A DNA stretch of 64,000 bases from Candidatus Latescibacterota bacterium (GTDB taxonomy: Bacteria > Latescibacterota > UBA2968): contig OZ242311.1 of the NCBI GenBank assembly GCA_965207885.1, positions 2,816,001 through 2,880,000 of the forward strand. The letters run 5' to 3'. Below are positions 15,342 through 20,709 of the stretch, one piece after another (the first letter of the stretch is position 1; each line of letters opens with the position of its first letter). The notes below the pieces were generated by a model. It saw only the letters and a program-made list of their open reading frames with translations. It had not been told where the DNA came from and searched no databases. The translations under genes and the position numbers were made by a program.

Positions 15342-15971
15342 ATGGGACAGACATTAGACATAGGTCGGCGAATAGAATTGGTGCCAATGGATGTCCATTT
15401 TCACGACATCACAATTGGGCTATACCGGCAAGAAAACGCACAGGGCACGACTTTTCGCGTTCACACATACAGCCAGATAGACGGGGCACAAGCGCGTATT
15501 GACTCCGTGAACCATGCAATGCGCGTCCTGGGAGGCATGGAAGACACAGGCGAGGGATTATTGCGCTTTCCGTGTGGCGCCACACATCTGCTCTCTGTAA
15601 AACGACTATTCCTGGAAGCGTGTAAACTCGGCATGGATGACGACGTATCTATGCGTCCGTTGACCATCCTGGACAAAAAATCGGGATTGCACATTTCCGC
15701 AACGCCCCAATCTAATGGCGCATACAAAATCACGGCTGATAGCGATGAAAAAGGCGCAGACCGGCGCATTCGATTGGTGGCCGGAGGGCTTGCAAAACTG
15801 GGCGAACTGGAACAAGTGGAAGAAGACCAGGTGCGCTTTGATTGCGGCATGACACACGATCCCCTTATAGGTGTCCTACTCGTACGCGCCCCCAATGTGC
15901 GATCCGTCATGCGAGAATTGGAACAGGCTGCCAGCCGGGGCGTGCTCGCAGCCCCGAGCGCGCAAAATTAG
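15342..15971 (+). CDS. Hypothetical protein with internally duplicated RFxCGxxH module
   Basis: 209 aa ORF with RBS, in operon with corrinoid genes; RFPCGATH and RFDCGMTH. Confidence 0.7.
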   Translation: MGQTLDIGRRIELVPMDVHFHDITIGLYRQENAQGTTFRVHTYSQIDGAQARIDSVNHAMRVLGGMEDTGEGLLRFPCGATHLLSVKRLFLEACKLGMDDDVSMRPLTILDKKSGLHISATPQSNGAYKITADSDEKGADRRIRLVAGGLAKLGELEQVEEDQVRFDCGMTHDPLIGVLLVRAPNVRSVMRELEQAASRGVLAAPSAQN

Positions 15972-15986
15972 GAACTGGAGTCACAT

Positions 15987-17793: not shown

Positions 17794-19714
17794 GCGTGAA
17801 AAAATAGATCGAGAAGCCTATCAAAAGCGGCTGGACCGCATGTCTGAAATTTTTTCAGATATTGTCCAGCATGCCGACGAACAGGCGCAAATGCGCTGTC
17901 CCTACAAAAACAAGGACAACGAGTGCACCGCCAAATTTGGCTGTAAATTCCAGCGAAAACCAGCGCCCAACCGGGCGCTTTTTCAATGTGCCAGCAACGA
18001 TAACCTCGACTATCGCACGGCCTGGGAAACAGAGCCAGATGCCTATCGTGAGATGAAGACCGCGCTCAAAGCCCAAAAAGGTCGTCGCCGAAAAAAGGGA
18101 ACGGGCACAATTACACACATGGGCAAGGTGCAACAACTCGAAGCGCGAAAGACTATATTTGATTATGCCGATGATCTGGCCGTTCAGGTTCCAACATCGT
18201 GTTTTCGGTCGGGAATATGCCATGAATGCGTGGTAGAAATTGCAAAAGGTGAAGAGAGCCTGTGCCCCAAAACCGAAGCTGAAGCCTTCTTAAAAGATAA
18301 TTACCGACTGGCCTGTCAGGCCGAAGTAGTAGATTTAGATGCAGAAGTTGAATTTGTGCCCCTGCGCCGCGAACCTCAAATTTTGACCTTGAGCCAAGAA
18401 AAGGAAATTGATCGTGATCCCGTGGTAATGCGCCGTGGCGATCGGGTATTCTACGACGGAGAAGACATCGATCGCTTTCGGGGACACATCTACGGACTGG
18501 CAATTGATGTGGGCACCACGACAATTGTGATGGATCTCGTAGATCTGGAATCTGGCGAAAGTATTGCGATTGCATCTTATGAAAATCCCCAGCGCTTTGG
18601 CGGCAGCGATATCATGTATCGCATTTCCTATGATGGCGAATATCCAAATGAGTTGTGGAAGGCACTGGTAAATGCGATCAACCACGAAATTCTCGTGCTA
18701 TGTGAAAAATTGGGTTTTGAGCGACAAGAAATTTACGAAATTGTCGTCGCTGGCAATGCCACCATGCGGGATATGTTCTTCAGGCTCGATGTGCAGAGTA
18801 TTGGACAAAAGCCCTATAAATCTCAAATAGAACACGAATATCTGACCGGAAAACGCAAAACAACCGCCCTTTATGAAAGCAGCAGGCGGTTGGGCATTCG
18901 GGCAAATCCCAAAGCGCGGGTATATGGCATGCCCCTTATTGCAAGCCATGTGGGCGGCGATGTCGCAGCGGATATGCTGGCCGTGGAAATGGGTAACCAA
19001 GACGAGATATTCATGCTCGTCGATGTAGGCACCAATACCGAAGTCGTAGTGGGCAACCGAGACAGGTTGGTGGCAGCTTCTTGTCCGGCGGGACCCGCAT
19101 TTGAAGGCGGCGGTATCGCCTGTGGCATGCCCGGACAAGATGGGGCGATCGAATCGATGGCGTGGGAAAATGGCCAGTTCAATTACCGCGTAATCGGCAA
19201 CGGCGCGCCCCAGGGGTTGTGCGGCTCTGGACTGATCGATTTGTTGGCCGAACTTCGGCGGCATGATTTGATGACAGAAAAGGGCGTATTTTCCGACCGC
19301 AAGCAATATGAAATGATTGTAGTGCCCGAACACGGCATTGCGCTATCGCGCGAAGATGCGAGCAATCTGGCTCAGGCCAAGGCCGCAAATTACTGTGGGC
19401 AGTTACTTGTCATGCGCGAATTTGGCATCACACCCGACCAGATCCATCGACTTTATCTATCTGGCGGATTTGCCAATTACGTCAATGTGCAAAATGCGAT
19501 TGACATCGGTTTTCTCGCACCCGTGCCAAAAGAGCGCATCGAAAAGGTGGGAAATGCCGCGATATTGGGCGCGAGAACAACCCTTCTCTCGCGGAAACGA
19601 CGCGATGAGTTAGAACGTCTGGTAAAACGAATTGAACATGTAGAACTGGAGACAAAGCCAGACTTTTTTGACGTATTTGTCGAAGGATGCCAATTTAAGA
19701 GGATGACGGTATGA
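17786..19714 (+). CDS. ASKHA-domain reductive activator of corrinoid proteins (RACE/RamA-like) with 2Fe-2S domain
   Basis: SCFRSGICHEC...RLACQ ferredoxin, DVGTTT, DVGTNTE, AGPAFEG, GLCGSG, GNAA. Confidence 0.88.
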   Translation: MSEREKIDREAYQKRLDRMSEIFSDIVQHADEQAQMRCPYKNKDNECTAKFGCKFQRKPAPNRALFQCASNDNLDYRTAWETEPDAYREMKTALKAQKGRRRKKGTGTITHMGKVQQLEARKTIFDYADDLAVQVPTSCFRSGICHECVVEIAKGEESLCPKTEAEAFLKDNYRLACQAEVVDLDAEVEFVPLRREPQILTLSQEKEIDRDPVVMRRGDRVFYDGEDIDRFRGHIYGLAIDVGTTTIVMDLVDLESGESIAIASYENPQRFGGSDIMYRISYDGEYPNELWKALVNAINHEILVLCEKLGFERQEIYEIVVAGNATMRDMFFRLDVQSIGQKPYKSQIEHEYLTGKRKTTALYESSRRLGIRANPKARVYGMPLIASHVGGDVAADMLAVEMGNQDEIFMLVDVGTNTEVVVGNRDRLVAASCPAGPAFEGGGIACGMPGQDGAIESMAWENGQFNYRVIGNGAPQGLCGSGLIDLLAELRRHDLMTEKGVFSDRKQYEMIVVPEHGIALSREDASNLAQAKAANYCGQLLVMREFGITPDQIHRLYLSGGFANYVNVQNAIDIGFLAPVPKERIEKVGNAAILGARTTLLSRKRRDELERLVKRIEHVELETKPDFFDVFVEGCQFKRMTV

Positions 19715-20709
19715 AGTCTTTTGCAGAACGCCTCGCAGATGACCAGCCAATGGTGTATGACGGCGGATTTGGGTCTCAATTATTTGCACACGGGGTAAAC
19801 CTGGCAAACAGTTCCATCGCCAATCTATCGCATCCCAAAGAGGTTGTAGCAGTACATCGCGCGTATATCGATGCGGGCGCAAACGCCATTGGCACAAACA
19901 CATTTGTGGTATCCCCCCTGCATCTCGAGATGGCCGATGCCGATGAGGATGATGCCGAGCACTTGACAGAATTAGCTGTCCAACACGCGCGGCAAGCCGT
20001 TGAAGAAAGCGGGAAGGATGTTTATGTGGGTGGCTCCATCGGTCCCTCCCCCGGTGCTATCGAAGCCGATGCTGGCGATACGGTTTTTGGCATTCCCAAT
20101 GTAGATGTGCGATCAGCCCACGAGCGCGTGATCTCTGCCATGGTCAAAGGCGGTGTCGATTTTTTTGTCATAGAAACGCAGTTTTCCGCCAAAGAAGCGG
20201 CAATCGCCGTTGACATTGCACGACAGACAGGCTTGCCCATCGCCGTGAATATGACGTATAAATTCACAAAGGATCGCAAAACGGGCGAATTGATCTATCG
20301 CACGGACTGGGGGGTTTCACCCAGCGACCTACTGGACATTTTGGCAAGTGGCGATTTTTCAAACGGCGATAATCTGCTCGGCGACGTGCAACTCCTGGGC
20401 CTGAACTGCGGCGCTGAAACGCGCAATACAGATCACACGGGCATGCCCTATGCAATTGAGGGCACAGTGCAGATGCAAAAAGCGCTTGTGGATCGCGGCA
20501 TTGAAAACAAGCGATTGATGGCCTATCCCAATGCGGGCTTACCCACCCTGGACAAAGTCACCAAACAGGCGTCGTATTCACAAGGCCCAGAAGACATGGC
20601 CCAACACGTCGAAGACTTGTTGGACGCCGGTGGATTCTTGATAGGCGGATGTTGCGGCACAACGCCCGATCACATTCGAGCATTTCGCAATATCGTAGAT
20701 GCACAATAG
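19711..20709 (+). CDS. Homocysteine S-methyltransferase family protein (MetH Hcy domain/BHMT-like)
   Basis: DGGFG, HRAYIDAGA, TNTF, GLNC, YPNAGLP, IGGCCGTTPDHI. Confidence 0.88.
   Translation: MKSFAERLADDQPMVYDGGFGSQLFAHGVNLANSSIANLSHPKEVVAVHRAYIDAGANAIGTNTFVVSPLHLEMADADEDDAEHLTELAVQHARQAVEESGKDVYVGGSIGPSPGAIEADAGDTVFGIPNVDVRSAHERVISAMVKGGVDFFVIETQFSAKEAAIAVDIARQTGLPIAVNMTYKFTKDRKTGELIYRTDWGVSPSDLLDILASGDFSNGDNLLGDVQLLGLNCGAETRNTDHTGMPYAIEGTVQMQKALVDRGIENKRLMAYPNAGLPTLDKVTKQASYSQGPEDMAQHVEDLLDAGGFLIGGCCGTTPDHIRAFRNIVDAQ

Follow-up and report, generated by a model that had tools for sequence, protein, structure and literature searches.

Corrinoid methyl relays are known from methanogens, acetogens and, recently, roseobacters. 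The described systems closest to the one treated here include (i) the split methionine synthase of Phaeobacter inhibens (PMC5764234) and the MtgB-C-D-E hub of Ruegeria pomeroyi (PMC12478193), (ii) the type 1 mlp clusters (PMC10418091), (iii) the MtsA/MtsB proteins of Methanosarcina and its MtpA/MtpC proteins (10.1101/548461), (iv) the CdmBCA proteins of Acetobacterium dehalogenans (PMC13222342), and (v) the methionine synthase MetH. Five adjacent genes, g1 to g5, occupy positions 15342-20709 of a 64,000-nucleotide stretch from Candidatus Latescibacterota bacterium (contig OZ242311.1, positions 2,816,001 to 2,880,000; the whole stretch is referred to as the window). Judged from gene content, they on balance probably form a corrinoid methyl relay that would pass the methyl of a donor, methyl-X, to a corrinoid protein (CoP) and on to homocysteine, giving methionine without folate. 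The module is a variant of the split-MetH/Mtg hub in a previously undescribed arrangement, and comprises the following genes:

g1, 15342-15971, plus strand: 209 residues, undescribed family, predicted partner subunit of the MtaA-like enzyme
g2, 15987-17039, plus strand: 350 residues, UroD-fold zinc methyltransferase of the MtaA/CmuA family, His-Cys-Cys site
g3, 17032-17793 (alternative ATG 17011), plus strand: corrinoid (B12) carrier with cap and Rossmann domains, DxHxxG motif
g4, 17786-19714, plus strand: 642 residues, RACo/RamA-type ATP-dependent reductive activase
g5, 19711-20709, plus strand: 332 residues, homocysteine S-methyltransferase module of the MetH type, Cys3 zinc site

A separate corrinoid protein, an MtgE-type homocysteine methyltransferase (HcyMT) and RamA/RACo are likewise found in the split methionine synthase of P. 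inhibens (PMC5764234) and in the Ruegeria hub (PMC12478193). In Ruegeria, one corrinoid protein serves glycine betaine demethylation and methionine synthesis, together with RamA and MetF2, so that a single carrier joins a substrate-specific methyltransferase to methionine synthesis, as proposed here; the likeness to the hub extends to relatives of the window, in which an MtgD-like pterin methyltransferase (PtMT) and a MetF2-like second MTHFR are encoded in the same operon. The input differs, being the MttB-family MtgB in the hub, whereas here it is an MtaA/CmuA-family zinc enzyme accompanied by g1. In addition, unlike the hub and the split MetH, the host genome (a single 6.23-Mb contig, 97% complete, across which all absences were checked) is without DUF1638, and the separate PF00809 PtMT of the split MetH (PMC5764234) is missing, as is the MTHFR-like gene, whereas a complete MetH is present.

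Type 1 mlp clusters likewise comprise MtaA-like His-Cys-Cys proteins, a corrinoid protein and a bacterial-type RACE, with no tetrahydrofolate methyltransferase in the cluster (PMC10418091). Their definition there asks for Mlp2 and Mlp3 as a minimum, all reports of them come from obligate anaerobes, and they have a proposed role in methyl-sulfur or methyl-selenium metabolism and in methionine recycling. By contrast, a single MtaA-like gene stands in the present cluster and in its genome, short of the at least two that define type 1, the second methyltransferase is a PF02574 homocysteine module, and g1 is added as a partner. MtsA and MtpA of Methanosarcina are likewise MtaA homologues that transfer the methyl group of a thioether to a corrinoid protein, which equals the second step of the relay proposed below, but there the acceptor is coenzyme M and one enzyme serves both halves, whereas here a MetH-type homocysteine module and g1 take part. 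CdmBCA also employs a donor-side methyltransferase of the UroD superfamily for its corrinoid protein, making methyl halides possible donors for this fold; CdmB, however, is described as a distant UroD relative, a scaffold with hydrophobic channels, with a tetrahydrofolate methyltransferase on the acceptor side (PMC13222342), whereas g2 falls within the MtaA clade, its thiol-type zinc triad being retained. Finally, g5 and g3 are homologous to the homocysteine and B12 modules of MetH, but the module is without pterin and S-adenosylmethionine (SAM) reactivation parts, has ATP-dependent reactivation by RACo, and gains an extra input from the MtaA-like enzyme and g1. The supplementary cluster lists of PMC10418091 aside, no description of the module or of g1 was found in the literature, and none of the papers listed joins MtaA with Poribacteria or Latescibacteria.

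The original prediction placed five adjacent plus-strand genes in this interval, the last four overlapping, and this layout is confirmed: g1 and g2 are separated by 15 nucleotides, and g2/g3, g3/g4 and g4/g5 overlap by 8, 8 and 4 nucleotides, respectively, with g3 read from ATG 17032, the position equal to the start of its homologues (locus L023), the g2/g3 overlap being 29 nucleotides from ATG 17011. The identities it gave to four of them (MtaA-like enzyme, corrinoid protein, RACE/RACo and HcyMT) are borne out by Pfam and TIGR01463 matches. The five are real genes and not chance open reading frames, given the homologue numbers (3436 for g2, 989 for g1), the conserved synteny and a ratio of nonsynonymous to synonymous substitution rates (dN/dS) of 0.07-0.12 for all five genes in two comparisons between MetH-bearing genomes, synonymous sites being saturated in a third; these ratios indicate that all five are under purifying selection between such genomes. 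In RNA libraries of four sponge metatranscriptome runs belonging to three studies, window positions 13400-22700, divided into 30 bins, are covered in 21-30 of these by contigs of 90-99% likeness, and certain of the contigs span the CoP/RACo and RACo/HcyMT junctions; such contigs may hold DNA, cannot show a single transcript and are taken as sequence presence in such libraries only, while stretches without cover in single runs were not used as evidence. Scans for promoters (9 promoter-like sites against 11.4 expected) and terminators (all terminator-like sites intragenic) were uninformative.

Gene g2 matches PF01208 (URO-D; 1.2e-64) and passes the TIGR01463 mtaA_cmuA (257 against a cut-off of 235.4) and PRK06252 (264.6 against 244) models, falling below the cut-offs of the equivalogs for MtaA (NF040654, 239.5 against 400) and MtbA (NF041608, 202.7 against 600). 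The nearest solved structure is MtaA 4ay7 (E 3e-50), and residues H242, C244 and C320 of the HIC...PEC motif of g2 align to its HICG and PGC segments, whose aligned residues are the zinc ligands of MtaA. The triad is invariant in 32 of 32 homologues (alignments of 32 sequences each were used for g2 and g1), and identity to g2 spans 79-96% over the best 80 of 410 related loci that encode a g2 relative, which constitute the locus survey used throughout. Elsewhere in the genome, the UroD family is represented by a single gene, a 354-residue open reading frame that scores 425 bits and is by that score a putative HemE.

The carrier g3 comprises PF02607 (B12-binding_2; 9e-20) and PF02310 (B12-binding; 1.4e-27) domains, with 1y80 as its nearest solved chain (E 9e-60) and a GDLHDIG motif in the alignment, and scores below every NCBIfam equivalog cut-off. 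The activase g4, the sole RACo in the genome, contains a 2Fe-2S ferredoxin domain (PF00111, Fer2), a middle domain (PF17651, Raco_middle) and a C-terminal ASKHA domain (PF14574, RACo_C_ter), all above cut-offs, and lies below the NCBIfam cut-offs for AcsV (316 against 800 bits) and RamA (122 against 500). Its first approximately 110 residues (17786-18115) form an extension N-terminal to the ferredoxin domain with four cysteines (C38, C47, C53, C68), a stretch kept in 44 of the 80 loci and called as a separate open reading frame in some; the extension could be the binding site of another metal or cluster. The module g5 matches PF02574 (S-methyl_trans; 1.3e-51, 176.5 bits), carries the LNC and GGCC motifs, and aligns to the homocysteine domain of Thermotoga maritima MetH (1q7m), including GGCCGTTP, from which we infer homocysteine as its substrate; to our knowledge, all known PF02574 enzymes methylate homocysteine. 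A third PF02574-family open reading frame, of 379 residues, lies elsewhere in the genome (G000:C1:3944980-3945840).

The most informative part of the module is g1, for which no Pfam (E<=0.01) or NCBIfam match was obtained and whose 989 homologues are all named hypothetical. A profile search in 1.84 billion proteins returned 271 cluster representatives; among the 150 matches listed, lengths run from 61 to 359 residues, the near-full-length ones having about 195-280, and none gives a sign of a fused known domain. A search for longer g1-containing proteins gave one, of 509 residues and without Pfam domains, and a g1-MtaA fusion, considered for open frames of 575-725 residues at g1 in three genomes, was rejected, the genes being in different frames. 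The two halves of g1 are homologous (hhalign probability 95.8%, E 8e-9); the protein is built from two copies of a small alpha/beta domain, an internal duplication in which F-x-C-x3-H occurs in each copy. Residues C78, H82, C168 and H172, that is, one Cys and His pair per half, are invariant in all 32 aligned homologues, and the C-terminal tail is nearly so, with R199, G200, L202, P205, S206 and Q208 as its invariant residues. The AlphaFold model has a predicted local distance difference test (pLDDT) value of 85.6, yet Foldseek gave no match at E<=1e-3, the best VIA Z score, 6.7, is within the noise of the tool, and ESM Atlas gave no usable match; because there is no convincing structural match, the function of g1 is not inferable from its fold.

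Its context is more telling. A g1 homologue stands upstream of the g2 relative on the same strand in all 80 loci, with a gap of at most 150 nucleotides in 72 and a maximum of 1109. Across the phylum (153 genomes, each at least 80% complete), g1 is present in 119 genomes and so is near-core in a large clade comprising sponge symbionts and free-living relatives of these; by family tallies, 118 of those 119 also have a g2 orthologue (identity 67% or higher). The exception, G091, has g1 at a contig end and no g2 orthologue; genomes negative for g1 contain g2 paralogues of 42-47% identity only, a fragment, or none. One distant g1 family has a homologue about 12 kb from an MtaA-CoP-RACo-MTHFR-like cluster.

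Complex prediction for g1 and g2 gave a score of 0.89, against 0.00 for the best of three controls, a mark attained by solved complexes in 58 of 80 cases and by mismatched pairs in 2 of 110, these counts applying only roughly because alignments made for this analysis were used. The runs share at least 13% of contacts, with partner pLDDT of at least 84. The predicted interface sets g1 tail residues 197-208 against g2, including the zinc ligands C244 and C320, with C78, H82, C168 and H172 of g1 outside it. It is thus predicted that g1 binds the MtaA-like enzyme, the conserved tail being placed at the zinc site. New here are the constant position of g1 upstream of the MtaA-like gene, this co-occurrence and the predicted binding.

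Comparison of related loci places the module within a wider family of arrangements. In 16 of the 80 loci, g1, the MtaA-like gene, CoP, RACo, an MTHFR-like gene (PF02219 and PF12225), PtMT (345-352 residues, PF00809 at 80-90 bits) and HcyMT stand together; because these loci add the MTHFR-like gene and PtMT to the same genes, the window holds a reduced split methionine synthase, and the notion of the cluster as an isolated invention falls away. Eleven loci have the five genes of the window without both folate genes, 34 have g1 and the MtaA-like gene only, with no CoP, RACo or HcyMT within about 8 kb (in 5 of these 34 the sequence stops less than 6 kb downstream of g2), and the remaining 19 have partial sets (3 likewise ending less than 6 kb downstream of g2); altogether, PtMT is present in 24. 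The synteny expected in the original prediction therefore holds in full for the g1-MtaA pair (80 of 80) and fails for the strict five-gene order, found in 11 loci only, the set being split in 10 of 10 inspected MetH-bearing genomes: where g1-MtaA stands alone in these, CoP-RACo-HcyMT forms a separate three-gene locus without PtMT.

Among 37 complete related genomes surveyed for MetH and PtMT, 17 have full-length MetH without PtMT, 17 have PtMT without MetH, 2 have both and 1 has neither. In the 17 genomes with MetH only, the MTHFR is ordinary or of 621-653 residues and never the MTHFR-like gene, whereas in 15 of the 17 with PtMT only, the MTHFR-like gene is the only MTHFR. Since the presence of MetH and MetF goes with the loss of both PtMT and the MTHFR-like gene, the latter two can be seen as a replacement for the former, and, in relatives that have no MetH, CoP, RACo and HcyMT would make up a split methionine synthase together with PtMT and the MTHFR-like protein. 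The 621-653-residue open reading frame with an MTHFR domain, which replaces the MetF of about 300 residues in the MetH-bearing genomes G021, G024, G025, G027, G028, G030, G032, G034, G035 and G037, may be a fusion protein.

A stand-alone CoP orthologue occurs in 37 of 37 genomes and an HcyMT orthologue (59-97% identity) in 35. In each of the 17 MetH-only genomes, g1 is retained along with the MtaA-like gene, CoP and the HcyMT orthologue, as is RACo wherever inspected; RACo co-occurrence is itself uninformative, because 149 of the 153 phylum genomes have RACo. Whether a folate-binding partner always accompanies the set, a question raised in the original prediction, thus receives a divided answer: 17 of 37 genomes are without PtMT and keep the set, but the same 17 hold a full MetH elsewhere. 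This retention without PtMT favours, as far as comparative genomics can indicate, a folate-independent job for the module.

The host genome fits the MetH-only pattern. A complete MetH of 1222 residues, with pterin, B12 and SAM-reactivation domains, is encoded at 3.208 Mb, and a canonical MetF of 298 residues is present. In the whole genome, PF00809 occurs only in this MetH and in a 307-residue open reading frame at 4.716 Mb, a putative FolP from its size and score, and PF02965 only in the MetH. No match was found genome-wide for PF06253 (MttB), PF12176 (MtaB) or PF07796 (DUF1638, the RamA partner in split MetH), the last giving no match to g1 either; with proteins of a relative as queries, PtMT recovered only the MetH pterin domain and the MTHFR-like protein gave no match. 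The expectation that a separate pterin or first methyltransferase gene might lie elsewhere is thus answered for PtMT, MttB and MtaB, all absent, though folate-dependent synthesis is represented by the complete MetH. The earlier view of two zinc-thiol enzymes (HIC...PEC; LNC/GGCC), one corrinoid protein and RACo as one unit without a folate module in the genome stands. Two weak PF01717 (MetE catalytic) open reading frames of 367 and 528 residues (53 and 70 bits; G000:C1:2143846-2144793 and 981346-982401) may encode short MetE-like enzymes.

The relay may be pictured in three steps. In the first, RACo would use ATP and one electron to bring the carrier cobalt back to Co(I). In the second, a heterodimer of the MtaA-like enzyme and g1 would bind methyl-X, Co(I) taking the methyl group and the His-Cys-Cys zinc holding the leaving group, which would therefore be a thiolate or selenolate, the donor being a methyl thioether. 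Candidate donors include dimethylsulfide, methanethiol, methylmercaptopropionate or another methylthio compound, and also a selenide; a methyl halide or some other donor is possible as well, the halide because a UroD-superfamily protein serves as chloromethane methyltransferase (PMC13222342). In the third, the HcyMT module would move the methyl group from methyl-Co(III) to zinc-bound homocysteine. In relatives without MetH, carrier, activase and HcyMT would also serve PtMT and the MTHFR-like protein as the split methionine synthase of the cell, and the module of the window would be what remains once full MetH and MetF take the folate-dependent job.

Transfer from methyl-X through CoP to homocysteine is the simplest cycle, because only g1/MtaA-like and HcyMT can serve the carrier in this genome, and because PF02574 enzymes methylate homocysteine and Methanosarcina MtaA homologues load corrinoids from thioethers. 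MtsA of Methanosarcina moves the methyl group of a thioether onto a corrinoid. A more specific proposal, advanced tentatively and on present indications rather doubtful, is that g1 and the MtaA-like protein form a two-subunit demethylase for a methylated sulfur (possibly selenium or halide) compound, in which the g1 tail would complete the zinc site and the methyl group would reach methionine over the one B12 carrier. The relay as such has precedents: a His-Cys-Cys site has been taken as a sign of S- or Se-methyl transfer (PMC10418091), the title of 10.1101/548461 presents MtpA, which is homologous to MtaA, as a methylmercaptopropionate:cob(I)alamin methyltransferase, and a carrier common to a substrate methyltransferase and methionine synthesis is described in Ruegeria (PMC12478193).

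Several findings weigh against the relay and against the role given to g1 in it. Donor and direction are deduced from gene content alone, and MtaA itself works in the opposite direction, from methyl-corrinoid to thiol. The methionine supply does not depend on the module, because the genome encodes MetH in full, SAM-reactivation domain included, as well as a canonical MetF; an MtnA-family gene is also present, and a methionine-salvage gap, considered as a reason for the module, is accordingly not evident. Two of the 37 genomes, G008 and G018, have no HcyMT orthologue at E<=1e-20. The compared genomes are kin, and few independent events may underlie the complementary distribution of MetH and PtMT. 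As regards g1, distant homologues (27-42% identity) do not adjoin an MtaA-like gene, and one of the three complex runs scored 0.02. Neighboring genes, finally, vary by lineage and give no consistent hint of the donor; their families include GFO/IDH/MocA oxidoreductase, HAD hydrolase, ADP-ribosylglycohydrolase, DHDPS-like, GntR/FCD regulator, PQQ beta-propeller, beta-lactamase-like, PhyH, GidA and lipoyl synthase.

The main rival, though unlikely, is a reversed flow at the MtaA-like enzyme, in which g1/MtaA-like would move the methyl group from methyl-CoP to a thiol- or selenol-like acceptor, for biosynthesis or detoxification, the carrier being loaded from methyl-tetrahydrofolate. The direction would be that of the closest solved relative, MtaA (4ay7), a methylcobalamin:thiol methyltransferase, and the His-Cys-Cys zinc site is intact; one Mlp is reported to act on methylcobalamin with selenide (PMC10418091), and in 16 of the 80 loci a PtMT able to load the carrier lies within the cluster. 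Loading is, however, where this explanation meets its difficulty, for neither the present genome nor the 17 of 37 complete relatives just described contain a PtMT-type loader, and carrier methylation would then proceed only through the pterin domain of MetH in trans, or through HcyMT running backwards. We know of no precedent in vivo for either. Nor does reversed flow give a reason why, in 10 of the 10 MetH-bearing genomes inspected, HcyMT is kept beside CoP and RACo.

That CoP, RACo and HcyMT are a remnant or back-up of an ancestral split methionine synthase, with g1 and the MtaA-like enzyme doing an unrelated job and adjacent by descent, is quite improbable. Such independence would suit the 34 loci in which g1 and the MtaA-like gene stand without the other three, and the much wider distribution of RACo than of g1 in the phylum (149 against 119 genomes). 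On the other hand, a split synthase minus its pterin module cannot make methionine from folate, and yet CoP and HcyMT are still present in 17 of 17 MetH-only genomes, with dN/dS of 0.07-0.12. In addition, an MtaA-family enzyme needs a corrinoid partner, and besides MetH most of these genomes list only one carrier-sized corrinoid protein (a frame of about 255-320 residues); in the window, the overlapping stop and start codons suggest co-translation.

A non-catalytic g1 is the least credible explanation and very improbable; the protein would then be a plug or a regulator, its tail closing off the active site of the MtaA-like enzyme in wait for a signal, or would itself accept or donate the methyl group. 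In favor of this, the predicted interface brings the invariant tail residues up to C244 and C320 of the zinc site, and the four invariant Cys/His residues could serve in metal binding or redox sensing. Against it, no Cys or other strong nucleophile occurs in the tail, the four residues lie outside an interface that is a prediction only, and the near one-to-one co-occurrence suits a subunit equally well as a regulator.

Should the relay from methyl-X to homocysteine operate as proposed, it would tie an MtaA-like enzyme to homocysteine methylation even where folate-dependent MetH exists; by the account of PMC10418091, no role is assigned to an MtaA-type enzyme outside methanogens. With a methylated-sulfur donor, organosulfur turnover would be linked directly to methionine and SAM supply by a route invisible to present genome annotation, and a sponge-associated and free-living clade would gain folate-independent methionine synthesis and act as an unrecognised sink for dimethylsulfide, methanethiol, methylmercaptopropionate and the like.

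The five genes are flanked on the plus strand, with hardly any spacing, by two gene pairs: upstream (13416-15327), a GFO/IDH/MocA oxidoreductase and a HAD hydrolase overlapping by 8 nucleotides, and downstream (20753-22647), an ADP-ribosylglycohydrolase-family and a DHDPS-family gene overlapping by 4. The tie of the downstream pair to the relay is doubtful, because it is kept in only 8-9 of the 80 loci, all close relatives. A divergent gene for a GntR/FCD-family regulator lies upstream of g1 in 32 of the 80 loci (among L020-L063), with none at this position in the window; the donor, or an acid related to it, might be the ligand of this regulator. In 7 loci (e.g., L018:12974-13294), a 106-residue PF13769 ('Virulence_fact') protein, absent from the window, is encoded after HcyMT or PtMT and may be a further accessory of split methionine synthases. 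As regards the window as a whole, tRNA genes were not found in it, its GC content is 0.40-0.42 at 52001-56000 against about 0.50 elsewhere, and over its first 2000 positions (1-2000) the GC and AT skews are -0.26 and 0.30, respectively.

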